From the NCBI GenBank assembly GCA_965228895.1, contig OZ245842.1:4480001-4544000 (forward strand): a DNA stretch of 64,000 nt. The letters are read 5' to 3'. This document shows positions 1,788-20,357 of the stretch, piece by piece (position 1 is the first letter of the stretch; every line of letters begins with the position of its first letter). Source of the DNA: Alphaproteobacteria bacterium (GTDB lineage Bacteria; Pseudomonadota; Alphaproteobacteria; SP197). The translations under genes and the position numbers were made by a program. The notes beneath the pieces are model-generated. The model was not told where the DNA came from. It saw nothing but the letters and a program-made list of their open reading frames with translations, and did no database searches.

Positions 1788-3293
1788 CTAGGACGGCGGC
1801 ACCATGCGTTGAACATGATAGGGCCGGCTTGAGAAACAAATGCAGTGATCGGCAACCAGCGGCTCAAGTGCGCGCACCAGCTCCCTGCGTTCCGCCGTCA
1901 CCGCGTTCAGCCGTTCCATGGCGCGCTCGACATCACGCTTCAGTTTCTCTTCATCGATCGTCGTGAAACGCCGATCCCGATAGACGAACCTGCCGCCCAC
2001 CATGACCGACTCGACGGCGCCGCCGTCATCGGCATAGACGATCTGATTGACCGGATCGTTCAGCGGCACATAGGTGATGTCGGCGAGGTCCAGGAACACG
2101 ATATCGGCGGCAAAACCTGTTTCCAGCCGTCCGGTAAAGTCCTCCATGCCGATGGTCCGCGCGCTGCCGGCGGTTGCCATGGTCAGCGCTTCGGCCGATG
2201 ACACCCACTCTCTGAGATCGTGGGTCATCGCGCGCGACACATAAGCGGCCAAACGCGTCGCCTCGAACATGTTCTGGTTATCCGATGAATTCGAACCATC
2301 GGTGCCAATGCCGACATTGACGCCGGCGTCGATCATCTCGCGCACCGCGGCGATGCCCGAACCCAGCCGCAGGTTACTGCCGGGATTGTGGGCGACAGAC
2401 GCGCTGCGGTCGGCCATGCGTTTCATGTCGTCGCCATCGAGCCAGACACCGTGGCCGGCGGTGAACCGTTCGGTCACAAGGCCGAGGTCATCGAAATGGG
2501 CAAGCAGCGTCTTGCCATAGTGTTCGTGACCGGCGAGCGCCTGGAGTTTCGACTCCGCCATGTGCGTATGCACGGGACAGGCGAACTCGTCGGCGAGATT
2601 CTTGCAGGCGACAAGAAAGTCGTCGGTGCAGTGCATGGGAATGGTCGGCGCGATACCGAAGCGCAGGCGGTCGGTGTCGAACGGCCACGATTTCAGCAGA
2701 TCGCGACAGGCATCGATGGCCGACTGGAATGGATCGAGCGCGAGTTTGTCGACGTCCTTGCGTAGGCCGGGCGGCAAGCTGTCGCGCAAGCCGGGAACGA
2801 TATCGTAGAACGACAGGTCGGCCATCATCGGCGTGATCAAGGCGCGCATGCCGATGTCGTCATAGGCGCGCGCCACCGCGTGCATGCCGTCGACCGTCGG
2901 CCGGGGCTGCTCCCAGGTCAGATCGTAGACGCCGGTCGCGCCGCGCCGGATCATGTCGGCGGCGTTCAGCAGCGTCGCCAGATAGCGGTCCTCATCGTTG
3001 CGCCCGCCGCTGATCCACGGCCCCGCGTTCAACAGCAGCTCCAGGGACCACTGGTCGCCGCGCCCTTTGCCGAACGCGCCGTGTCCATGGGTGTGCGCGT
3101 TGATCATGCCGGGCATCATCAACGTGCCGTCGACGCGATACTCTTCGGCGTCGTCGGGCACGGCCATGCCGGGATCACCGATGGCGGCAATACGCCCGTC
3201 GGTGCCGATCAAGAGATCGCGCAACGGCGCGGCGTGACCGTCGATATCTAAAAGTCGGCCGCCGCGCAGGACGAGAGGTCGTTCGAGACTCAT
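1788..3293 (-). CDS. Metal-dependent amidohydrolase (AtzA/MtaD/deaminase-like)
   Basis: PGMINAHTH, HTHMAES, HGVWL, HNPGSNLRLGSG, GTDGSNS motifs. Confidence 0.85.
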   Translation of the reverse strand: MSLERPLVLRGGRLLDIDGHAAPLRDLLIGTDGRIAAIGDPGMAVPDDAEEYRVDGTLMMPGMINAHTHGHGAFGKGRGDQWSLELLLNAGPWISGGRNDEDRYLATLLNAADMIRRGATGVYDLTWEQPRPTVDGMHAVARAYDDIGMRALITPMMADLSFYDIVPGLRDSLPPGLRKDVDKLALDPFQSAIDACRDLLKSWPFDTDRLRFGIAPTIPMHCTDDFLVACKNLADEFACPVHTHMAESKLQALAGHEHYGKTLLAHFDDLGLVTERFTAGHGVWLDGDDMKRMADRSASVAHNPGSNLRLGSGIAAVREMIDAGVNVGIGTDGSNSSDNQNMFEATRLAAYVSRAMTHDLREWVSSAEALTMATAGSARTIGMEDFTGRLETGFAADIVFLDLADITYVPLNDPVNQIVYADDGGAVESVMVGGRFVYRDRRFTTIDEEKLKRDVERAMERLNAVTAERRELVRALEPLVADHCICFSSRPYHVQRMVPPS

Positions 3294-8518: not shown

Positions 8519-8674
8519 GACGGCGGCGAGACTAGCACCGGAAACTCGGCCCGCCACCCCGATCTTCGCCCGCCGATGCCGTCATCACTTCCCGATGATC
8601 ATGCATGCGCGGTCTTTCGGCGTGAACACGGTCGGGCTAGACTGATTTCAGCGACACCGTGTGTGGAGCGCGCA

Positions 8675-10069
8675 TTGAGCTTTAAGTCCCAGATTCCTTC
8701 TGTCGATCGGCTGCTCGGTCTGCCTGACCTGCAAGCGCTGACAGCAAGTCACGGCCAGACGCTTGCGACCGACGCGGTACGCCGGGTGCTGGCCGACCTG
8801 CGGGCCCTACCCGATGACGCGACGCCTGATCTGGACGACGCGGCCTTGGTCGGTCGGATCATGGATGTGGCGCACCAACGCATGGCGCTCTCCTTGCGCC
8901 CGGTCTTCAACCTGACGGGGACTGTGCTGCATACCAATCTCGGCCGCGCATCCTTGCCAGAAAGCGCGATCGAGGCGATGGCGTCGGTTGCGCGCGGTGC
9001 CAGCAACCTGGAGTTCGACGTCGCCGCCGGCAAACGCGGCGACCGGGACGAACATATCGAGGAACGGTTGTGCCGTCTGACCGGCGCCGAGGCGGCGACG
9101 GTCGTGAACAACAATGCGGCGGCCGTCCTGCTTGCGCTCAACGCGTTGGCCGCGCGCAAGGAGGTGCCGGTCTCTCGCGGCGAACTGATCGAGATCGGCG
9201 GCGCCTTTCGCCTGCCCGACATCATGCGCCGCGCCGGTACACGCCTGGTCGAGGTCGGGACGACCAACCGGACCCACGCCCGCGACTATGAGGCGGCGAT
9301 CGGCGAACGCACCGCGCTCTTGATGAAGGTCCACACCAGCAACTACGCGGTCGAGGGTTTCACCGCGGCGGTCGCGGAGTCCGAACTCGCGGCCCTGGCC
9401 CATCAGCATGACTTGCCGCTAATGACCGATCTGGGCAGCGGTACCCTGGTCGACCTGACGGCCTATGGCTTGCCCGCCGAACCGACCGTCAGCGGCATGA
9501 TCCGGGCCGGCGCCGACCTCGTAACCTTTTCCGGCGACAAGCTGCTCGGCGGACCGCAGGCCGGCCTCATCGTTGGCCGGACCGACCTGATCGCGCGGCT
9601 GAAGAAGAACCCCATGAAGCGGGCGCTGCGTTGCGACAAGGTCACGTTGGCAGCGCTGGAAGCGGTCCTCGTCCTCTACGAAGACCCCGACAGTCTGCCT
9701 GATCGTCTACCGGCGCTGCGGTTGCTGACACGTCCGGAAACAGCGATCCGAGCACAGGCCGAGGCCTTGCTGCCGGCAATAGAAAAAACCCTCGACGCTC
9801 ACGCCGAGGTCGATGTCGTCGCGGTCAAGAGCCAGATCGGCAGCGGCGCGCTGCCGGTCGATCTGCTGCCCAGTGCCGCCCTGCGCCTGCGCAGCAACGC
9901 GCCAAAGAAACGCCAGGGCCGCGCTCTCAAGGAACTCGCTGCGGCCTTCCGCGACCTGCCGTGTCCGGTGATCGGTCGGGTCAGTGACAACGCTCTGATC
10001 TTCGACCTGCGCTGCCTGGACGACGCGGCCGCTTTCGCCGCGCAACTCGACCGGCTGGCCCTGCCGTGA
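8675..10069 (+). CDS. selA: L-seryl-tRNA(Sec) selenium transferase
   Basis: [64 protein letters not shown] (PLP lysine). TTG start after GGAG is inferred. Confidence 0.97.
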
Positions 10070-12012
10070 TCGTCGCCACGGCCGGCCATGTGGACCATGG
10101 CAAGACGGCGCTGATCCGCGCGCTGACCGGCGTCGAAACCGACCGGCTGCCGGAAGAAAAGAAGCGCGGGCTGACCATCGATCTCGGCTTCGCCTATCTG
10201 CCGCTCGAGGACGGCTCGGTTCTGGGGTTTATCGACGTGCCCGGCCACGAAAAGTTTCTGCGCAACATGGTGGCCGGTGTCGCCGGCATCGACATCGCAC
10301 TCCTCGTCGTCGCCGCCGATGACGGTGTCATGCCGCAGACAATCGAACACCTCGCGGTCCTGGATCTGCTCGGCGTGCGGGAGGGTCTGGTCGCCTTGAC
10401 CAAGACCGACATCGTCGACAGCAGCCGGGTCGCCTCGGTCAAGAACGACATCGGCGCACTGTTGGCCGATACCAGCCTCGCCGACAGTCCCGTGTTTCCG
10501 GTTGCCGCACCGGCCGGAACCGGCATCGACGACCTGCGCGACCACCTGGAATCACTCGCCGGTGCTGTAAGCGAACGACGAGACACCGGCAACTTCCGAC
10601 TGGCCGTCGACCGCAGCTTCACCATTCCGGGCGCCGGCACGGTTGTGACCGGCACGGTGTTCTCCGGACACGCTTCGACCGGTGGCCGCCTCTATGTCGC
10701 GCCCGCCATGCGCGAGGTCAGGTTGCGCGGGATACACGCCCAGGATCGCCCATCGGACGATGCGCGCGCAGGCTGGCGCTGCGCGCTTAACCTCGTCGGC
10801 ATCGAACGCGACGAGGTCGCGCGCGGCGACTGGATCGTCGCGGCGGGCGCGCCGCCGCCATCGCGTCGTCTCGACATTCGTCTTCGCGTGCTCGGCAGCG
10901 AAGACAAACCGCTGAAGCATTGGGCACCCGTTCATGTCCACCACGGCGCGGCCCACATGCACGGCCATGTCGCGGTGATCGGCGCAGGATCGATCGCACC
11001 CGGCGAGACTGGCCTTGCGCAGCTCGTGCTCGACACGCCGGCCGTCGCGGCAAGCGGCGATGCGGTCGTGCTGCGCGATCAATCGGCGCAGCGCACCCTA
11101 GGCGGCGGCCGGGTCATCGACCCAGGCGGCCCTGCCCGCGGCCGCGCGCGGCCGTCGCGGGTTGCCGCGCTCGACGCCTTGGAAACCCGCGATAACGCGG
11201 CCGCTCTTGCCGCCATGCTCGCGTTGCCGGGCGCGGGCGTGGCGCTGGAGGGATTTCGCCGCAACCGCAATCTTACGGACGATGAGGCCCGCGCACTGTT
11301 CGCCGAAGCCGACCTCAAGATCACCGGACGCAGCGACGACACGATCGGCCTGTCGCCCGCCAGATGGACCGTCCTGCTCGACACGGTCGAACAAGCGGTC
11401 GGACGCTGGCACGGCGACCACCCCGACCGGCTTGGCCCGACGCCGGAGGAACTGCGCCGCGCCGCCGCGTGGGGCCAGGACCGCAACCTGTTGCAGGAGA
11501 TACTGGCTACGTTGGTCGGCGAAGGCCGGCTTCAGCGTCGTGGCATGGTGGTCCACAAACCCGATCACGATGTCCGGCTCAACGCCAAGGACGACGCACT
11601 GTGGCAGCAGGTCCGTGCCCACCTCTCACCCGACCACGGCAGCCCGCCGGCGCTATGGCAGCTCGCCGAAACCATCGGCAGCGAGCCGGAAACGCTTGAC
11701 CGGTTTCTCGGCCGCCTCGCCGGCATGGGTCTTGTCATGCGCGTTGCGCGCAACCGTTATCTCACACCCGAAGACGCCGCCCGCTACGGCCGCGTCGCCG
11801 AGAAACTCGCGACCACCGACGAGCCCGGCCTGACCGCCGCCAGCTTTCGCGATGCCGCCGGTGTCGGACGCAACTTCGCCATCGACCTCCTGGAGTTTCT
11901 TGACCGCGCCGGTCTAACCCTTAGACAGGGTGCGCGGCGCAGCCTGCGCCGTTCCGCCGCCGATGTCTTTGGCGCGGATAGTTCGGCCACCAAAGACCGT
12001 GCCCATGCTTAA
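10066..12012 (+). CDS. selB: Selenocysteine-specific elongation factor
   Basis: [35 protein letters not shown]-terminal winged helix [19 protein letters not shown]; GTGA overlap with selA. Confidence 0.97.
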
Positions 12013-13174
12013 GTCGTTCTCTGTCGAAGCGCTCGCCGCCGGCCTGCTCGCCTCGTTTGTCGGGTTCGCCAGTTCGTTCGCCGTCATCATCCAAGGGCTG
12101 ACCGCGGTCGGCGCGACCCAGGCCGAAGCCGCGTCCGGCCTCATCGCGCTCTCGATCTCCATGGGCCTGTGCGCGATCTGGCTCAGCCTCAGATCCAAGC
12201 TGCCGATATCGGTTGCCTGGTCGACCCCTGGCGCCGCGCTCTTGGCAACCACAGGTGCGATCGAAGGCGGTTTCTCTGCGGCGGTCGGCGCCTTCATCGT
12301 CACCGGCGTGCTGCTGGTGGTTGCGGGTTTGTGGAAACCGCTCGGCCGCTGGGTCGCCGCGATCCCCGCGCCGCTGGCCAATGCCATGCTGGCGGGCGTG
12401 ATCCTAGGATTGTGCCTGGCGCCGGTCAAAGCGGTCGCCGAACTGCCGGCGCTTGCCTTGCCGATTGTCATCGTCTGGGCCGTGGTCGCGCGGTTCAGCA
12501 GGATCTACGCCGTGCCGGTCGCCGTCGTCGTGACAGCGGTGATCATCGGCGTCACCACAGACGTGTCGAGCATGAAAATGGGATCGCTGTGGCCGGAGCC
12601 GGTCCTGGTCATGCCGACCTTCCCGCCCGCCGCGATGATCGGCATAGCCTTGCCGCTCTTCATCGTCACCATGGCATCGCAAAACATTCCGGGCATGGCG
12701 GTCTTGAACGCCAACGGTTATCGGCCCAACCCCAGCCCGCTCTTCGCCACCACCGGCTTGTTCAGCCTGTTCTCCGCGCCATTCGGCGGCCATGCGGTGA
12801 ACCTGGCAGCAATCACCGCGTCACTGTGCGCCAGCGACAACGCCCATCCCGATCCGGCGCGCCGCTACTGGGCCGCCGTCGTCGCAGGCGTCGGCTATGT
12901 CCTGTTCGGTCTGATGGCGGGTGCAGCGACGGCGTTCATCGCGGTTTCGCCGCCCATCCTGATCCAGGCGGTCGCCGGCCTTGCTCTGCTGGGCGCGCTC
13001 GGCACCTCCATGGTCCAGGCGCTGAGCGAGGCCAGGGATCGCGAAGCCGCCATCGTCACCTTTCTGGTAACCGCGTCGGGCTTGGCGTTTCTCGGCATCA
13101 GCGGCGCGTTCTGGGGGTTGATCGCCGGCGGCGCGGTGATGGCGCTGACACGTTGGCGGCGCGGCAAGGCATGA
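12005..13174 (+). CDS. benE: BenE-family (benzoate/H+ symporter-like) membrane transporter
   Basis: AWSTPGAALL, PLFIVTMASQNIPG, NLAAITA, FLVTASG..FLGISGAFWGL motifs; overlaps the selB 3' end. Confidence 0.88.
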   Translation: MLKSFSVEALAAGLLASFVGFASSFAVIIQGLTAVGATQAEAASGLIALSISMGLCAIWLSLRSKLPISVAWSTPGAALLATTGAIEGGFSAAVGAFIVTGVLLVVAGLWKPLGRWVAAIPAPLANAMLAGVILGLCLAPVKAVAELPALALPIVIVWAVVARFSRIYAVPVAVVVTAVIIGVTTDVSSMKMGSLWPEPVLVMPTFPPAAMIGIALPLFIVTMASQNIPGMAVLNANGYRPNPSPLFATTGLFSLFSAPFGGHAVNLAAITASLCASDNAHPDPARRYWAAVVAGVGYVLFGLMAGAATAFIAVSPPILIQAVAGLALLGALGTSMVQALSEARDREAAIVTFLVTASGLAFLGISGAFWGLIAGGAVMALTRWRRGKA

Positions 13175-13191
13175 ACCATGGTCAACGACAT

Positions 13192-13286
13192 GGAAAGGGG
13201 TCGCATCCGGTGATGCGCCCGGTCTTCAAAACCGGTGAGACGCGTTCAACGGGTCTGGTGGGTTCGACTCCCACCCCTTTCCGCCA
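13192..13286 (+). tRNA. selC: tRNA-Sec (anticodon TCA)
   Basis: 8-bp acceptor stem GGAAAGGG/CCCTTTCC plus GCCA; 6-bp D stem CGCATC/GATGCG; anticodon arm CCGGT-CTTCAAA-ACCGG; long variable arm; 5-bp T stem GTGGG-TTCGACT-CCCAC (bacterial 8/5 fold). Confidence 0.97.
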
Positions 13287-13304: not shown

Positions 13305-15500
13305 ATGACGCCAGCCGAACCGGTGACCTCAGACATCGTGCTGGTCGGCGGCGGTCACGCCCATGTCGAGGTCATCCGCCGCTTCGCCATGGAGCCTGAG
13401 CCCGGCGTGCGTCTGACGATCGTCGCGCGCGACACCTTCACGCCCTATTCCGGCATGCTGCCGGGCTATCTTGCCGGTCACTATGACCACACCGCCTGCC
13501 ATATCGACCTGAGGCCTCTGGCACGCCTGGCCCGCGCCCGCTTGATCCACGCGCCGGCGACCGGCCTTGATCCGATCGCGCAAACCGTCGCCATCGAGGG
13601 CCGTCCGCCGATCCCCTATGACCTCGCGTCGATCGATATCGGCTCAGTGCCGACCAAACTGGGCATCGACGGCGCCGATGACCACGCCATCCCGGTCAAG
13701 CCGGTCGACCAATTCCTGACCCGATGGCAGAACGTCGAAGCGCGTTTGACCGAAACCAGCGGCCCATTTCGCCTGACGATCGTGGGCGGCGGTGCGGGCG
13801 GTGTCGAGGTGGCGCTTTCCCTACGCCACCGGCTGCGCCGTTACCTCGCCGAGAACGCTGGTGACCCCGACCGTCTCGCCGTCACCGTCATCACCGACCG
13901 CGACACCGTCCTGCATCAGCATGCCATGCCGGTTCGCCGCGCGATGATCCGCGCACTCGACCAGCGGGACGTGACGATCGTGACGGGCCACAAGGTGGTG
14001 GCGTTTCACGCCGACCGCGTTGCCTGCGATCCCCAGATGGAGATTACCAGCGACGCCGCCGTCCTGGTGACCCATGCGGCCGCCCATCCCTGGCTGGCAT
14101 CGACCGGACTTGATCTGGACGACAGCGGCTTCATCAAGGTCGGGCCAACGCTGCAGTCGGTGTCGCACGCCGGGGTGTTCGCCGCCGGCGATGTCGCGGC
14201 GTTCACCACCCAGCCGCTCGCCAAAAGTGGGGTCTATGCCGTGCGCAAGGGGCCGATCCTGGCCGACAACCTGCGACGCTTGGCGCGCGGGTTACGGCCG
14301 CAGCCCTATCGTCCGCAGGGCCGCACCCTCGCGCTGATCTCGACCGGCGACCAGAATGCGGTGGCGTCCTGGGGACCCCTTGCGGTCGAAGGCGCCTGGG
14401 TCTGGCGTTGGAAAGACCGCATCGACCGGCGCTGGATGGCGGTCTACCAGGATATCGAGCCCATGCCCGAGGATCCCGCGGATCCCATGCGGTGCGGCGG
14501 CTGTGGCGCCAAGGCGCCGGCGGTCGTCCTGGATCGCGCGCTCGAGCGCCTCGACATCAAAGCCAACGCATCACTGGTCGCCGGCCTCGATGCACCGGAC
14601 GATGCCGCCGTCTTCACGCCGCCCGCCGGTCAGGTTGCCGTGCAGACCGTCGACCAATTTCGCGCGCTCGTCGACGATCCCCATCTGTTCGGACGGCTCA
14701 TGGCGGTCCACGGTCTGGGCGATCTTCATGCCATGGGCGCAACACCCGCCGTTGCCTTAGCGCTGGTCGGCCTGCCGTTTGCCGACCCGGATCGCATGGA
14801 GTCGGATCTCGTGCAGGTGCTCTCGGGCGCGCTTCAGGTTCTGAACGACGAAGACTGCGTGCTGGCCGGCGGCCACACCAGCGAGGCCCAAGAGTTCACC
14901 TTCGGCTTGGCGTTGACCGGCTTTGCCCGTCAGGACGAGCTACTTGTGAAGGGAGGCTTGCGTTCGGGTGACGACCTGATCCTGACCAAGCCCTTGGGCA
15001 CCGGCGTGTTGTTCGCCGCCGACATGCGCGGCGCGGCCAAGAGTGCCTGGATCGAGGCGGCACTGGCCTCGATGCTGCAATCGAGTGCGATGGCCGCCAC
15101 CTGCCTGAAAACCCACGGCGCAACCGCGGCGACCGATGTCACCGGCTTCGGCCTGGCCGGACATCTCGGCGAAATGGTGCGGGCGTCGTCAGTCGATGCC
15201 GAGTTGTGGTTGGAGTCACTTCCAATATTGGCGGGCGCGCGCGACCTGTTCGCGCGCGGTATTGCCAGCACGCTGCAGCCGGCCAACTTCGAAAGCTCAG
15301 CAACCGCGCTAAGCGACGGCACCGACCCCATCCTGTTCGATCCGCAGACCGCCGGCGGCCTGCTGGCTGGCATCCCACACGACAGAACCGCCGCATGCCT
15401 GAAAGACCTCAACGACGCGGGCTATCAATCAGCCCGCGTCGTAGGGCGTGTCACGGAGTCAGGCTCTGGTCAGATCGCGATTAGAGCGGATCTCCTCTAG
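13305..15500 (+). CDS. selD: Fusion of an FAD/NAD pyridine nucleotide-disulfide oxidoreductase and selenide,water dikinase
   Basis: N-terminal LVGGGHAH, YSGMLPG, VGGGAGG, FAAGD; C-terminal CGGCGAK, DDAAV, GGHTSE, LTKPLGTG, TDVTGFGLAGHL, DPQTAGGLL. Confidence 0.93.
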   Translation: MTPAEPVTSDIVLVGGGHAHVEVIRRFAMEPEPGVRLTIVARDTFTPYSGMLPGYLAGHYDHTACHIDLRPLARLARARLIHAPATGLDPIAQTVAIEGRPPIPYDLASIDIGSVPTKLGIDGADDHAIPVKPVDQFLTRWQNVEARLTETSGPFRLTIVGGGAGGVEVALSLRHRLRRYLAENAGDPDRLAVTVITDRDTVLHQHAMPVRRAMIRALDQRDVTIVTGHKVVAFHADRVACDPQMEITSDAAVLVTHAAAHPWLASTGLDLDDSGFIKVGPTLQSVSHAGVFAAGDVAAFTTQPLAKSGVYAVRKGPILADNLRRLARGLRPQPYRPQGRTLALISTGDQNAVASWGPLAVEGAWVWRWKDRIDRRWMAVYQDIEPMPEDPADPMRCGGCGAKAPAVVLDRALERLDIKANASLVAGLDAPDDAAVFTPPAGQVAVQTVDQFRALVDDPHLFGRLMAVHGLGDLHAMGATPAVALALVGLPFADPDRMESDLVQVLSGALQVLNDEDCVLAGGHTSEAQEFTFGLALTGFARQDELLVKGGLRSGDDLILTKPLGTGVLFAADMRGAAKSAWIEAALASMLQSSAMAATCLKTHGATAATDVTGFGLAGHLGEMVRASSVDAELWLESLPILAGARDLFARGIASTLQPANFESSATALSDGTDPILFDPQTAGGLLAGIPHDRTAACLKDLNDAGYQSARVVGRVTESGSGQIAIRADLL

Positions 15501-16705
15501 GCGCGATAGCCGTCCGGCACCATCATGAAGTCGCCGACGTCGTAAAGCGCGGGATCGGTCTCTTGTAGCAAGTCTTTGCGCAGCGACTGCAGCAATTCGG
15601 CCAACGACGTCTCGTGCCACAGCCAGTCGGTGAGCTCCTTCTGATCGACCATGCCCGGCCGCGCGGTCGCCGCTTCCAGATAAAAGGCCTTCAGGTCCTC
15701 GGCCGACAAACGCAAGGCATCGGCGCTGCCGACCGTCTCGATCGGACTTTCGCGGGTGTCACCGGCGAGCCAACCGTCCAAAAAACGGGCGGCATCGGTC
15801 ATCTCTAGGCCGCTCAAGCCAACCGACGTGCGGCCGCGCCGGTCGCGGCCGACGTCATACCACGGCTGCAACTGACCGATCTCGGCCAGCACGGCTTCGC
15901 GCAGACCGGTCCGGTCTTCCGGTGCCGGCGGTTTGGGGAAACTCACCGGGCAAACCCAGCTCTCCATGCCCTCATCCGCCACTTCTTCCGGTGCGTCTTC
16001 GGGGAAGTCGACCAGCACCGGACCCTCCGGCGCGTCGAACAGGTCGAGCGCGGCCTTCAGAACCTTCGTCTGAAAGGCCGGATTGTTCGGCACGCCGAAC
16101 GGGCGCCCCAGAGGGAACGGCACCCAAAGCGCACGCGGCGGCATGAGCTTTTCGTTGTGCTCACGCACCAGCGCGATGATCACCGTCGCCAGGCCTTCGT
16201 CTTCCAAATACTTCGCTAGTCCGCCAACGGCGCACGTACAAAGCGGTCAGACGGGGGCGAGGACGACCGTGTTGACGCCGTCGGCCTTCAGGATACCGGC
16301 GAGCTCGCGAACCGCCGGCTCCATCAAGGTCGGGTCGGTCGCGCCCATGAACGAATAGTGGAAGTCGGCAACCGAACCGATCGTTCCTTCATCGGCCAGT
16401 TCGTTCAGCCGGTGCAACGGAAACGCGATGTTGACGTCCTGATGGAAACCCGTGCGGTCGTGGGTGGTCGAAACATGATCCATGACCACATCGTCGACCC
16501 TGTCCGCCGGGATCACGCGATAGTCCGCCGCGTCGGCGGCGAACGGCTGGTCACTCTTCAGCTTGAGGCCCGCCGAAGAGATCAATGCCACCCGCCGCTC
16601 CTTGGCCGGAGCCGGCTCGGTCCAGGGCTCGATCTCTATCTCGGGCACCGCCCAGTCTTCCAGGAACTCTCTTGCATCGGCGTCGAGGTCCGCCAGTCTC
16701 ACCAT
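15497..16705 (-). CDS. PrdB/GrdB-like selenoprotein (Sec at codon 153, UxxC) with a C-terminal extension, 402 aa
   Basis: ORFs 16247..16705 and 15497..16207 are in the same frame, separated only by TGA at 16247-16249. Readthrough gives VVLAPV-U-PLCTCAVGGLAKYLEDEGLATV...PPRALWVPFPLGRPFG. N-terminal VALISSAG, DVNIAFPLHRL and HYSFMG match the selenoprotein B family. GGAAGGAG RBS. Confidence 0.88.
16211..16246 (-). promoter_or_regulatory. Putative bacterial SECIS hairpin
   Basis: Directly 3' of the UGA: CCG CTTTG TA C GTGCGCC [GTT] GGCGGAC TA G CGAAG. Stems CTTTG/CGAAG, TA/TA, GT/AC and CGCC/GGCG; the apical loop starts with G after an 18-nt spacer from the UGA. Folded by hand. Confidence 0.65.
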
Positions 16706-16759
16706 GTCTTCTCTCCTTCCCCGATCCGGTTGTGAGCCTCGCGGACAAGCAGAAGCCTG

Positions 16760-18214
16760 TCAACTCACGGCTTCACGGGTCGGCAACATCATCGGCGCCA
16801 TCTCGTCGGCCGTGCGGCCCGCCCAATCGAGTTCCGACACGCGTTCCAGCATGCGCGCCTGGGCGCGCTGCAGGCGTTCGGACTCCTCCGCAAGATCGAT
16901 GGTTGTCAGCTTGCCGTCTTGTACCACCGCCTCGCCGTCCACATAGACATCGCGGACCGCGCGTTCGGCGGCGACCACCAACAGGCTGCGCAGCGGTTCA
17001 CGCACCGGCATCATCGCGGGGTGTTCGAGGTCAACGACAACAAAGTCGGCCCGGGCGCCCGGCGCCAGCCGGCCGATATCGTCGCGGCGCAGCGCCTTGG
17101 CGCCGCCTGATGTCGCGGCGTTGAAGACATCGAGATAGTCGAGGTCCGCGACACTTTCACCGATGACACGCGCGGCGACCGCCGCGGTGCGCATTTCCTC
17201 CAGCATGTTGTGCGGGTAGGTGTCGGTGCCGATCCCCATGTTGACGCCGCGCCGGACGTATTCGCCGAACGTGCGCAGCGTGATGCCGCGCCGCGAAAAC
17301 ACGGTCGGACAATGGGCGACGGCCGCGCCGCGCTCGGCCATCAGGTCGAGATCGCGGTGCGACGACCAGTGCAGCCAGGGATGGTGATCCAGAAAGATGC
17401 AGTGGGCGATGATGCTGCGTTCGTCCAGCACGCCCAAGTCGGCCATCCACTGGATCGGCGTCTTGCCGTGACGGCGCTGCATCTCCAGAAACTCGGTCAC
17501 CGACTGCGCCGCATGAATGGTCCACGGCAGGTTGCGTTCGGCGGCGTAGGCGTGGCTGTCGCGTAGCAAACCTTCGCCACACGTATCGACTTGGGACGGC
17601 GAGAGCATGCCATCGAGACGGCCGGAAGGGTGCTGGCGCGCCAGTTCGATCACCCGGCAGGCGGCATCGAACCGTTCGCGCCCGGCCTTTTCGTCCCAAT
17701 CGTATTGCAGCTTGTAGCCGTCGGATGTGTACCAGCGGGCATCGCGAAAGAACGGCGCAGCCACCGCGCGGATGCCGCTATCGGCGAGCGCGTCGAGCCA
17801 GCCATCGAAGGCCGCCGACAGATCGACCACGGTGGTGACGCCCGATAGCAGCAGTTCCGCCAACGCGACCTTCAGGCATGCCATGCGCCCCTCGTCATCG
17901 GCGGGGTCGAAAACCGGCAGATGTTCATAGAGCGAGCTGTGCCAAAACCCCGGTGAGTGGGTTTCATCGGTGATGCCCTTGCGCATGGTCTCGCTGGTCG
18001 GATGGCTGTGGACGTTGATCAGGCCCGGCATCACCAAACGCCCGGAACCGTCGATCTCCATCCCGGCCGGACCGTCATAGCCTTTGCCGACAAACGTGAC
18101 GGCACCGCCGGAGAAAGCGAGGTCGGCGTTACGCAGATAGACATGGCGTGCCTCGGCCGCATCCCAGGCGACCAGCCAGTCAATGCCACGGATAACGGTC
18201 GTCTCGCTCATCAC
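16760..18214 (-). CDS. Metal-dependent amidohydrolase (chlorohydrolase/deaminase-like)
   Basis: PGLINVHSH, TIHAAQS, AHCIFL, HCPTVF, GIGTDTYP; same strand as and 54 bp upstream of the selenoprotein gene. Confidence 0.85.
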   Translation of the reverse strand: MMSETTVIRGIDWLVAWDAAEARHVYLRNADLAFSGGAVTFVGKGYDGPAGMEIDGSGRLVMPGLINVHSHPTSETMRKGITDETHSPGFWHSSLYEHLPVFDPADDEGRMACLKVALAELLLSGVTTVVDLSAAFDGWLDALADSGIRAVAAPFFRDARWYTSDGYKLQYDWDEKAGRERFDAACRVIELARQHPSGRLDGMLSPSQVDTCGEGLLRDSHAYAAERNLPWTIHAAQSVTEFLEMQRRHGKTPIQWMADLGVLDERSIIAHCIFLDHHPWLHWSSHRDLDLMAERGAAVAHCPTVFSRRGITLRTFGEYVRRGVNMGIGTDTYPHNMLEEMRTAAVAARVIGESVADLDYLDVFNAATSGGAKALRRDDIGRLAPGARADFVVVDLEHPAMMPVREPLRSLLVVAAERAVRDVYVDGEAVVQDGKLTTIDLAEESERLQRAQARMLERVSELDWAGRTADEMAPMMLPTREAVS

Positions 18215-18318
18215 ATCTCTCCCCTGCCGCCTGAAACTTGGCCTACACTGTCACTCTATGACACGACGCGGTGCATCATTATGCTGCACCGCGTCGGCGT
18301 TGACAGGGAGGATAACCG

Positions 18319-19275
18319 TTGACCGCAACCGATCTCTACCCGCCATACGAGCCGTGGGACAGTTTCGCGCTTCCGGTCAGCGATCTTCACACGCTTCATG
18401 TCGAGCAAGGCGGCAAGGCGGACGGGGTCCCGGTTGTCTTTCTGCATGGCGGGCCGGGCGATATCTGGTCGCCGGCGATCTACCGCTTCTTTGATCCCGA
18501 CCACTATCGCGTCATCGCGTTCGATCAGCGCGGCGTCAATCGGTCGACGCCGGCCGGCGAACTCCGTGACAACACGACGCCCCATCTGATCGCCGATATC
18601 GAGGCGATCCGGCAGCATCTGGGCATTGAACGGTGGATTGTCTTCGGCGGATCCTGGGGCAGCGCCCTGGCCCTGGCCTATGCCCTGGAACATCGTGACA
18701 GCGTTCTGGCGCTTGTCGTGCGCGGTATCTATCTGGGCGATCCCGACGACGACATCTGGGGTTTCAGCCATTGTCGGAACATCCTGCCGGAGGCCTGGGA
18801 TGAACTCGCAAGCCACTTTCCGGCCGGCGACCACGACAATCTCTTCGCCGCCTGCGCGCGCGATATCGATGATGACGACGACGCACGTGCGATGGAAGTC
18901 GCCAAAGCGTTCGACGTTTTCTCCGGCTTGCTCTGCGGCAACACGACAAAGCGCGACGACATTCCCCTACACAAGTCAACCGACGCGGAGACCCTGGTCA
19001 CGTCGCGTCTGTCGCTCGCCTATTTCGCCAACGATATCTACCTGCCGCCCATGCACTTGCCGAACAACGTGCACAAGCTCGCCGGCATACCCGGCGCGAT
19101 CGTGCAGGGCCGCCGCGACCTCATCTGTCCGGCGCGCAATGCCTGGCTCTTGCACAAGGCCTGGCCGGAGGCGACGCTGACGATCAGCGACGAGGCCGGT
19201 CACGCGCCGTTCGAGGACGGAAACCGCGAGGCCCTTGTGACTGCGATGGAAACCTTGAAGGATCTGAAGCTGTGA
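18319..19275 (+). CDS. pip: Proline iminopeptidase (alpha/beta hydrolase, S33)
   Basis: LHGGPG, FDQRG, NTTPHLIADIE, FGGSWGS, VQGRRDLICP, AGH motifs. Confidence 0.88.
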   Translation: MTATDLYPPYEPWDSFALPVSDLHTLHVEQGGKADGVPVVFLHGGPGDIWSPAIYRFFDPDHYRVIAFDQRGVNRSTPAGELRDNTTPHLIADIEAIRQHLGIERWIVFGGSWGSALALAYALEHRDSVLALVVRGIYLGDPDDDIWGFSHCRNILPEAWDELASHFPAGDHDNLFAACARDIDDDDDARAMEVAKAFDVFSGLLCGNTTKRDDIPLHKSTDAETLVTSRLSLAYFANDIYLPPMHLPNNVHKLAGIPGAIVQGRRDLICPARNAWLLHKAWPEATLTISDEAGHAPFEDGNREALVTAMETLKDLKL

Positions 19276-20357
19276 ACCCGTCGCGTTTGATCGAACCGGA
19301 TGAACTGGAGCCGCTTGCCACCGGCGCCTGGATTCTGGGCGCGGGCGGCGGTGGTTCACCCTATGACGGTTACCTCAATCTCAGGCGGCTCTACCGGAAC
19401 GGCGCTCAGGTGGAACTCCTGGACCCCATGGCGCTCGACGATGACGATCTGGTCGCTGTCGTGTCGACCATGGGCGCGCCGCTGGTTGGCCAGGAACGCC
19501 TTGCCGATCCCGCCCTGTCGGTCAAACCGGTCGTCGCCATGCAGGACTATCTGGGGCGAACTTTCCGTGCGGTCATGCCGGTTGAAATCGGCGGCGGCAA
19601 CGGGCTGGAGCCGATGCTTGTCGCGTCCCAGCTCGATATCCCGGTGGTCGACGCCGACGCCATGGGCCGCGCGTTCCCGGAAGCCCAGATGACCAGCTTC
19701 GCCATTCATGGCCTTAAGATGTACCCAATGGCGCTGGGCGATATCCGGGGCAACGCCGTGATCGTCCAGAAAGCCGAAAACCCGAAATGGGTCGAACGCA
19801 CCAGCCGCGCCGTCTGCACCGCGCTGGGCAGCACCGCGCCAACCGCCAAGGCGCCGCGCACCGGCCGCGAGGTGAAGGACTGCGGCATCCTCTATTCGGT
19901 GACCCGCGCCATCAACCTGGGCCGCACGGTCCACGACGCGCGCGAGCGACATGTCGATCCCGTCACTGCCGTTCTGGACGGCGAAGGTGGCGCGTTGATG
20001 TTCACCGGCAAGATCCAGGACGTCGATCGGCGGACGACAGCCGGTTTCCTGCGTGGGTCGGCGCGCCTTGAAGGGCTCGACGGCGATCACGGCGCGACGT
20101 TCGAGGTCGACTTCCAGAACGAATACCTGATCGGCCGGCGCGACGGTCAGCCGACCGTCATGGTGCCGGACATCATCTGTCTGATGGATAGCGAGACCGG
20201 CGAAGCGGTGGGAACGGAGACCCTGCGTTACGGCCAGCGTATCGCCGTCATCGCGCTGCCGGCGCCACCGGTCCTCTCAACGCCGGACGGCCTGGCGCTG
20301 GTCGGCCCGCGCGCCTTCAACTACGACATCGACTACCGCCCGGCATTCAACGCCTGA
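19272..20357 (+). CDS. DUF917 family protein
   Basis: GAWILGAGGGGSPY, EIGGGNG, VDADAMGRAFPE, FQNEYL, VPDIIC, LRYGQR, VGPRAF motifs; GTGA overlap with pip. Confidence 0.85.
   Translation: MNPSRLIEPDELEPLATGAWILGAGGGGSPYDGYLNLRRLYRNGAQVELLDPMALDDDDLVAVVSTMGAPLVGQERLADPALSVKPVVAMQDYLGRTFRAVMPVEIGGGNGLEPMLVASQLDIPVVDADAMGRAFPEAQMTSFAIHGLKMYPMALGDIRGNAVIVQKAENPKWVERTSRAVCTALGSTAPTAKAPRTGREVKDCGILYSVTRAINLGRTVHDARERHVDPVTAVLDGEGGALMFTGKIQDVDRRTTAGFLRGSARLEGLDGDHGATFEVDFQNEYLIGRRDGQPTVMVPDIICLMDSETGEAVGTETLRYGQRIAVIALPAPPVLSTPDGLALVGPRAFNYDIDYRPAFNA

Follow-up and report, generated by a model that had tools for sequence, protein, structure and literature searches.

A probable selenocysteine codon within a long PrdB/GrdB-superfamily gene of an alphaproteobacterium

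A stretch of 64,000 nucleotides from an Alphaproteobacteria bacterium (GenBank assembly GCA_965228895.1, contig OZ245842.1, positions 4,480,001 to 4,544,000 of the forward strand; hereafter the window) carries, on its minus strand at 15497..16705, a gene of the PrdB/GrdB superfamily that is interrupted by an in-frame TGA. A preliminary description of the window had proposed that two open reading frames (ORFs) at this place form one selenoprotein gene, joined through decoding of the UGA as selenocysteine (Sec), with a hairpin resembling a selenocysteine insertion sequence (SECIS) and the decoding machinery close by. Every test run supported this proposal. Judged from comparative sequence evidence, the gene is almost certainly genuine and its UGA a Sec codon, so that the predicted product is a selenoprotein of 402 residues. 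Sequence features expected of a bacterial selenoprotein gene were found, namely a column occupied by UGA or Cys, a hairpin with a G in its loop, and genes for selA, selB, selD and tRNA-Sec.

The gene and its in-frame UGA

The elements of the gene are as follows (hairpin positions are numbered from the U of the UGA).

15497..16705, minus strand: predicted PrdB/GrdB-superfamily selenoprotein gene, a single gene of 402 residues (translation with TGA read as U)
16711..16718, minus strand: Shine-Dalgarno-like AAGGAGAG, its 3′ end 5 nt before the ATG (sequence inspection)
16705..16703, minus strand: start codon ATG (translation)
16249..16247, minus strand: in-frame UGA, putative Sec codon for residue 153 (U153) in V-U-P-L-C-T-C (conserved TGA, Cys in homologues)
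16210..16244, minus strand: SECIS-like hairpin, positions 6-40 (fold and covariation)
16235..16219, minus strand: conserved upper stem, positions 15-31 (covariation)
16228..16226, minus strand: apical loop G22-U23-U24 (fold)
15499..15497, minus strand: stop codon TAG (translation)

In the ORF list, the upstream half of the gene is a 152-aa ORF (16247..16705) terminating at the TGA, and the downstream half is a 236-aa ORF (15497..16207) listed from a TTG at 16207. On the minus strand the codons GTC CTC GCC CCC GTC precede the TGA, and the 13 in-frame sense codons CCG CTT TGT ACG TGC GCC GTT GGC GGA CTA GCG AAG TAT (P L C T C A V G G L A K Y) lead from it to the TTG, which is followed by GAA. 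The coordinates and codon counts of the preliminary description were all correct. With TGA read as U, translation from 16705 to 15497 gave 402 residues containing ...LAPV-U-P-L-C-T-C-AVGGLAKYLEDEGLATV..., in which V-U-P-L-C-T-C occupies residues 152-158. The family pattern that had been pointed out on both sides of the junction was borne out by an alignment of 14 sequences: HYSFMG, LEDEGLATV and PPRALWVPFPLGRPFG coincided with invariant or nearly invariant columns, and the invariant columns near the junction included P151, C/U153, C156, E168, G171, T174 and P189-R191.

The anatomy of the gene and its hairpin suggests the route of decoding. Translation would begin with the ATG at 16705; SelB with Sec-tRNA(Sec) would be recruited to the UGA by the hairpin, which starts a few nucleotides downstream and presents the loop G-U at positions 22-23; selenocysteine would be inserted as residue 153, and the ribosome would continue to the TAG at 15497.

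Relatives down to approximately 45% protein identity kept the TGA column together with the hairpin and the flanking frame. Matches to the protein were found in 27 of 41 related genomes, at 41 places in total; a single internal TGA was present at 37 of these places, one of which also had a TAG, and no stop at the other 4. An even selection of 401 genomes of the class yielded 40 genomes with a match at E≤1e-20; one TGA was present in 27 of the 32 long-form matches and no stop in the other 5, and the 19 short matches, which covered residues ~30-230 only, had one TGA (9), none (9) or a TAG (1). A scan of species-representative genomes confirmed 455 loci as relatives. The 80 loci kept for analysis came from metagenome-assembled genomes (MAGs) labelled Alpha-, Beta-, Gamma- and Deltaproteobacteria (Desulfobacterales), Dehalococcoidia/SAR202 and others. 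A motif search over these 80 loci found TGA in 75 (78 sites) and a Cys codon (TGC) in L083 only, and failed in 4. Stricter extraction gave 85 complete gene copies from 74 loci in five phylum-level groups (Alpha-, Beta-, Gamma- and Deltaproteobacteria and Chloroflexi), and the Sec column was TGA in 85/85.

Cys was also found at this column in full-length database homologues. Both states that the preliminary description had advised looking for, Cys and TGA, were therefore present, and one outcome that it had named as fatal to the proposal, homologues consistently split by TAA, TAG or a frame change at the junction, was encountered nowhere. The 85 copies themselves terminate at TGA (49), TAG (22) or TAA (14), so TGA also serves as an ordinary stop in the same genes. 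At eleven loci (L015-L019, L026, L036, L054, L087, L088 and L093) the selenoprotein gene was duplicated in tandem, and both copies had a TGA and a hairpin of their own.

The hairpin and the decoding machinery

Folding of the 42 nt from the UGA, a check proposed at the outset, predicted one hairpin (-16.6 kcal/mol) that accounted for 88% of the ensemble (z -2.25; 4 of 200 shuffled sequences folded as well). The loop was as previously described, an apical GUU whose G lies after a spacer of 18 nt past the UGA. Over the 85 copies, the first base of the apical loop was G in every one and GU was present in 84.

Conservation of the stem was examined in 68 distinct sequences, which aligned without gaps. 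Bases 15-21 and 25-31, the two sides of the upper stem, were nearly fixed. Pairs 19-27 and 20-26 did not vary; pair 18-28 was C-G in 67 sequences and U-G in 1; and pair 15-31 was G-C in 67 and, through a compensatory double change, A-U in 1 (L012). Pair 16-30 was C-G in 55 sequences and U-A in 13, and was never unpaired. In the true register 71% of cells were paired, vs 29-51% in slid registers. Over the 85 copies, pair 16-30 was Watson-Crick in all (C-G 72, U-A 12, G-C 1) and covaried with the encoded residue, Arg (CGC) in 72, Cys (UGC) in 12 and Val (GUC) in 1, its 3′ partner varying at a synonymous position of a Gly or Ala codon. The additional Cys to which the preliminary description had drawn attention, giving the motif UxxCxC, is therefore present here and specific to the clade of the window rather than a mark of the family; because the pair tracks the residue, this Cys is one side of a SECIS base pair.

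Synonymous sites in the codons of the 5′ arm of the hairpin were also more strongly fixed than any others of the gene. At the third bases of codons 157-159 the commonest base reached 97%, 99% and 92%, vs 58% on average and at most 82% at the other conserved four-fold codons (n=78), which argues for a constraint at the RNA level. The lower stem (7-12 with 34-39) was real in the clade of the window and poorly kept elsewhere. In the Cys-form homologue L083 the nucleotide pattern of the hairpin was lost. A search of Rfam at gathering thresholds returned tRNA-Sec as its sole match and no SECIS family.

The features by which a bacterial SECIS element is recognized, a hairpin just 3′ of the UGA, a G in the apical loop and covariation, were thus found, with the lower stem weakly supported. 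In Escherichia coli fdhF the corresponding SECIS positions are G23/U24. The element described here resembles that type in being an intragenic hairpin directly 3′ of the UGA, with an apical-loop G-U approximately 22-23 nt from the first base of the UGA, below an unpaired G on the 5′ side, and differs from it in having an unrelated sequence.

As had been proposed, the decoding machinery is adjacent; the following genes all lie within 8 kb of the selenoprotein gene.

Start near 8600-8690, end firm at 10069, plus strand: selA, selenocysteine synthase (Pfam SelA 1.1e-161, Se-cys_synth_N)
10066..12012, plus strand: selB, Sec-specific elongation factor (TIGR00475 451.2 bits, cut-off 242; SelB winged-helix domains)
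13192..13286, plus strand: tRNA-Sec, anticodon UCA (ARAGORN; Rfam RF01852 82.4 bits, gathering score 47)
13305..15500, plus strand: fusion of a pyridine-nucleotide-disulfide oxidoreductase with SelD (TIGR03169 460 bits, cut-off 310; TIGR00476 276.9 bits, cut-off 125)

The oxidoreductase domain forms the N-terminal part of the fusion, and the SelD part, a selenophosphate synthetase, is of the Cys type, since its active-site loop reads CGGCGAK. The TIGR03169 fusion-type domain scored above cut-off in 52 of the 401 sampled genomes. The fusion gene converges on the selenoprotein gene and their stops overlap by 4 nt, both being held in a palindromic CTAG at 15497..15500. A GC-rich inverted repeat is situated past the selenoprotein stop (~15415..15445), inside the 3′ end of selD. 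Between selB and tRNA-Sec lies a gene for a BenE-type benzoate transporter (11930..13174, plus strand), which was retained in the closest relative (L014) alone; because its longest ORF shares 83 nt with the end of selB, the true start probably lies farther downstream.

The genome, a single contig of 5.53 Mb (62% GC, 98.7% complete), was also searched for other selenoproteins by three targeted family searches. Outside the window, a UGSC-family gene (G000:C1:2832180-2832602, plus strand; 131 bits, cut-off 125) and a SelW-like/Rdx gene (1134364-1134564, minus strand) each had one in-frame TGA and are likely two further selenoprotein genes. The hairpin of the UGSC gene places a GUC loop at positions 23-25 past its UGA, a spacing almost as in the PrdB-like gene, which fits the reading of both by one SelB. 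Nine molybdopterin-oxidoreductase matches in the genome had no in-frame TGA. With at least three selenoprotein genes in the genome, the PrdB-like gene does not by itself account for the Sec trait. A genome-wide search for TGA-joined frames, scored by GC content at third codon positions (GC3) and codon usage, returned 178 and then 118 candidates and was rejected as too noisy; the candidates were mostly adjacent in-frame genes and antisense frames, and the known gene was not among the 70 listed.

Family, predicted structure and gene neighbourhood

The preliminary description had compared the junction with the Sec site of PrdB and GrdB. At the level of the superfamily, and in having a UxxC motif at the Sec column, this comparison stood; as an assignment to either enzyme it did not. 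The protein scored above the gathering threshold of Pfam PF07355 (GRDB; 33.6 bits, cut-off 22), the sole such match in the genome, over residues 12-150, ending three residues before the Sec and corresponding to profile positions 200-345 of 347. TIGR04483 (PrdB) of NCBIfam aligned with residues 32-222, across the UGA junction (6.7e-30). All curated PrdB and GrdB models failed: the equivalog TIGR04483 reached 104.3 bits vs a cut-off of 300, GrdB (TIGR01917) 34.1 bits vs 602.2, and the 'various selenoprotein B' subfamily (TIGR01918) 40.1 bits vs 65.45, with the GrdB, GrdF and GrdH models at 34-47 bits vs cut-offs of 602-800. No NCBIfam model was passed by the full-length protein.

The best curated match, the D-proline reductase subunit PrdB, is typified by Clostridium sticklandii (Kabisch et al. 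1999, as cited in the 2026 review PMC13188914). PrdB shares with the present protein the UxxC motif, the aligned Sec column and the size of the first domain, and differs in being without the ~165 extra C-terminal residues; no prd operon surrounds the gene described here. With GrdB, GrdF and GrdH the present protein shares the PF07355 domain, although its match is confined to the C-terminal half of that profile. The GrdB motif as given in that review is UxxCxxC, compared with UxxCxC in the clade of the window and UxxCxR in most of the family.

A structure model of the full-length protein (mean predicted local distance difference test, pLDDT, 80.7) comprised an alpha/beta domain (~30-240), a low-confidence linker (244-263) and a helical C-terminal domain (~265-400; pLDDT 92.8 when modelled alone). 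U153 was placed in a loop between a strand (146-150) and a helix (154-169), where together with C156 it could form a selenenylsulfide redox pair. The linker carries a Cys-Pro (C252-P253) that was invariant in 48/48 aligned sequences. The predicted enzyme would thus present the U153/C156 pair in a PrdB-like alpha/beta domain, with C252 in a flexible linker and the helical domain beyond. It is most likely a Sec-dependent reductase of a small molecule. Foldseek of the whole model against the PDB gave no match at E≤0.001, and VIA alignment of the whole model gave generic Rossmann-like matches over residues 32-240 only (best Z 9.3, root-mean-square deviation 3.0, 135 aligned residues). With the C-terminal domain alone no fold relative was recognized in the PDB (best VIA Z 5.5, best Foldseek E 1.3), which does not show that the fold is new. 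A sequence search of solved structures returned nothing relevant (best E 0.46, a designed protein).

The genes on the upstream side of the selenoprotein gene are as follows.

16760..18214, minus strand: TRZ/ATZ ('chlorohydrolase') family amidohydrolase, 54 nt upstream of the selenoprotein gene (Pfam Amidohydro_1 3.6e-43; NF004801 374.7 bits, cut-off 416)
18306..18278, minus strand: promoter-like site ahead of the amidohydrolase (sequence prediction)
18319..20357, plus strand: prolyl aminopeptidase (TIGR01249 above cut-off) and a DUF917/S-Me-THD-like gene, diverging from the amidohydrolase

In 9 related loci, those of the clade of the window, the amidohydrolase gene immediately preceded the selenoprotein gene in the same orientation; at 71-95% identity, the amidohydrolase was better conserved in that clade than the selenoprotein. 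The two genes are probably co-transcribed there as operon partners. The DUF917/S-Me-THD-like protein is weakly related to thiohydantoin desulfurases (107 bits, cut-off 450); its gene was kept in 5 related loci, and that of the prolyl aminopeptidase in 3. In a marine clade of MAGs labelled Rhodospirillaceae (L037, L040, L047, L052, L056, L072 and others), two genes for xanthine-dehydrogenase-family molybdenum subunits and a glutathione S-transferase (GST) gene lie upstream, with a convergent selD fusion downstream. The context thus varies. The protein resembles a redox module used in several pathways.

Farther along the window, the segment 20525..23805 (plus strand) encodes a helix-turn-helix (HTH)-cupin regulator followed by two proteins like the alpha (2Fe-2S/flavin adenine dinucleotide) and beta subunits of heterotetrameric sarcosine/opine oxidases; both scored far below cut-offs, and these genes were not conserved beside the selenoprotein gene in relatives. 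A second TRZ/ATZ-family amidohydrolase gene (1788..3293, minus strand), 13 kb from the first, resembles 5′-deoxyadenosine deaminase and 8-oxoguanine deaminase at scores below the cut-offs.

Alternative explanations and place among catalogued selenoproteins

Were the TGA an ordinary stop, the locus would encode two proteins (152 aa and ~236 aa) or be a decaying pseudogene, and the hairpin would be incidental. Public gene callers do split the gene almost everywhere, TGA is a normal stop in these organisms, ending 49 of the 85 copies, and one relative has an additional TAG. Nevertheless, the same codon was TGA, never TAA, TAG or a frameshift, in all 85 copies across several phyla, and Cys occupied the column in intact homologues. 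The 13 codons from the TGA to the first possible start were among the most conserved of the gene at the protein and nucleotide levels; compensatory RNA change accompanied suppressed synonymous variation, and a complete Sec machinery lies next door. Taken together, these observations make an ordinary stop very improbable. Equally hard to sustain is the view that the gene encodes a genuine PrdB or a GrdB, GrdF or GrdH subunit acting with a pyruvoyl subunit as in Clostridia. It would account for the best curated match (TIGR04483) with the Sec column inside the alignment, for the PF07355 score, for the name 'proline reductase PrdB' given to such genes in the marine literature, and for a prolyl aminopeptidase gene 1.6 kb away on the other strand (275 bits, cut-off 260). 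Against this stand the failure of every curated model, the C-terminal extension absent from PrdB, and the retention of the prolyl aminopeptidase in so few related loci. None of the neighbouring genes scanned was PrdA-like (no PF09338 domain), and the one-contig genome gave no match to PF09338 (PrdA/GrdE) or PF04723 (GrdA), a result that is suggestive only, because positive controls gave no match either. By NCBI's curated models, then, the long-form protein would be neither a D-proline nor a glycine reductase, and the evidence is clear that this long stand-alone branch is misnamed as 'proline reductase'.

A role in selenium metabolism, for example in releasing reduced selenium or passing it to SelD, would explain the frequent adjacency to selD: a SelD gene, fused or unfused, was the immediate neighbour in 28 of the 80 loci, in three arrangements. 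In the 401-genome sample, TIGR03169 was above cut-off in 18/30 genomes with the long form vs 34/371 without it, and within ~4 kb of the long-form gene in 7 of the 18, a co-occurrence for which the Sec trait and common descent are confounders. However, selenoprotein genes often adjoin their decoding genes, so adjacency is expected anyway; no SelD was nearby in 52 of the 80 loci, and the fusion occurred without the PrdB-like protein in 34 genomes. Such a role is improbable, though less so than either of the foregoing readings. That the long PrdB-like selenoproteins constitute a separate enzyme class, built of the Sec/Cys centre, the linker Cys and the helical domain and neither proline nor glycine reductases, is a somewhat better but still doubtful prospect. 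Alternatively, they may help to cleave C-N or C-S bonds reductively, at a step that follows TRZ/ATZ amidohydrolases and molybdenum hydroxylases.

Several observations weigh against the interpretation of the gene as a Sec-dependent reductase of the long stand-alone type. As a single sequence the hairpin is only moderately unusual, at the z of -2.25 given above and at -1.70 for an 81-nt stretch; lower-stem pairs 7-39, 8-38 and 9-37 were unpaired in 42-54 of the 68 rows; and the covariation amounts to few independent events, the changes being inherited among related sequences. The additional TAG, at codon 281 of the relative G005/L009 (G005:C4:226389-227573), accompanies the conserved TGA; this orthologue may be a pseudogene, or its assembly may be in error. 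(Genome G005 also contains a second, partial copy of the gene.) The absence of PrdA/GrdE and GrdA was drawn from searches in which no positive control matched, and the fold match of the N-terminal domain is generic, the Z of 9.3 belonging to a LacI-type regulator and being tied with short-chain dehydrogenases (Z 7.4-9.0). Gene context is not conserved across the family, with an amidohydrolase here and xanthine-dehydrogenase-family and GST genes in another clade, and the enzymatic function is one that we infer purely.

The preliminary description had called the selenoprotein hidden, and predicted that standard pipelines would call two proteins. In annotation this was so: among the 120 best database hits, 112 were C-terminal halves of ~230-260 aa, and such halves also made up the majority of the 150 best cluster representatives. 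Two entries (P0190 and P0215) were 152-aa N-terminal halves ending exactly at the TGA. These half-proteins are mostly unnamed or labelled 'hypothetical protein', and NCBI's name for full-length relatives is 'glycine/sarcosine/betaine reductase selenoprotein B family protein'. One database protein (P0050) has W at the Sec column, presumably because its gene caller read the TGA as Trp. In the literature the description did not hold, as the family fits the criteria of marine PrdB selenoproteins catalogued since 2005. In the tables of the Sargasso Sea survey (Zhang, Fomenko & Gladyshev 2005; PMC1088965), 'proline reductase PrdB' had 42 Sec genes and was the third most abundant selenoprotein family; in those of the Global Ocean Sampling (GOS) survey (Zhang & Gladyshev 2008; PMC2398784) it had 235 Sec vs 110 Cys forms. 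Both surveys count it (pfam07355, UxxC) among the most abundant selenoprotein families. 'Proline reductase' selenoproteins have also been reported in Anaeromyxobacter and Geobacter (PMC1794560), and 131 of them in 110 organisms (PMC5029168). Table 1 of the 2026 review lists 'glycine reductase selenoprotein B (PF07355)' and 'D-proline reductase (TIGR04483)' and has no long stand-alone entry (PMC13188914). A literature search for 'selenoprotein' with 'PrdB-like' found no paper.

The marine family and the present gene share a pfam07355-type domain, a Sec-first UxxC, a SECIS element and a minority of Cys forms, and the typical marine families UGSC and SelW-like also occur in this genome. This placement follows the published criteria (Table 2 of PMC2398784; Tables 1-3 of PMC1088965). 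On these grounds the gene would belong to a long stand-alone branch of the marine 'proline reductase PrdB' selenoproteins. In the passages of the two surveys on the family, it is taken to be proline reductase, and neither the lack of a PrdA nor an additional C-terminal domain is mentioned.

The gene is therefore almost certainly a genuine selenoprotein gene that fits the criteria of a family already catalogued from ocean metagenomes since 2005, and the finding itself would be unsurprising to a selenoprotein specialist. The useful points are the systematic mis-annotation, the misnomer 'proline reductase', and the unexplained C-terminal domain with the recurrent selD neighbourhood. The gene makes a clean and well-supported case for re-annotation. 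A dedicated family model with a marked Sec column would repair many entries, given the 251 cluster representatives that score at E≤1e-30 and the 455 loci. The name PrdB, borne by what the two surveys count among the most abundant surface-ocean families, was given by homology alone, and the real chemistry of the protein is testable; the C-terminal domain and the recurrent selD neighbourhood make the function of these proteins worth testing.

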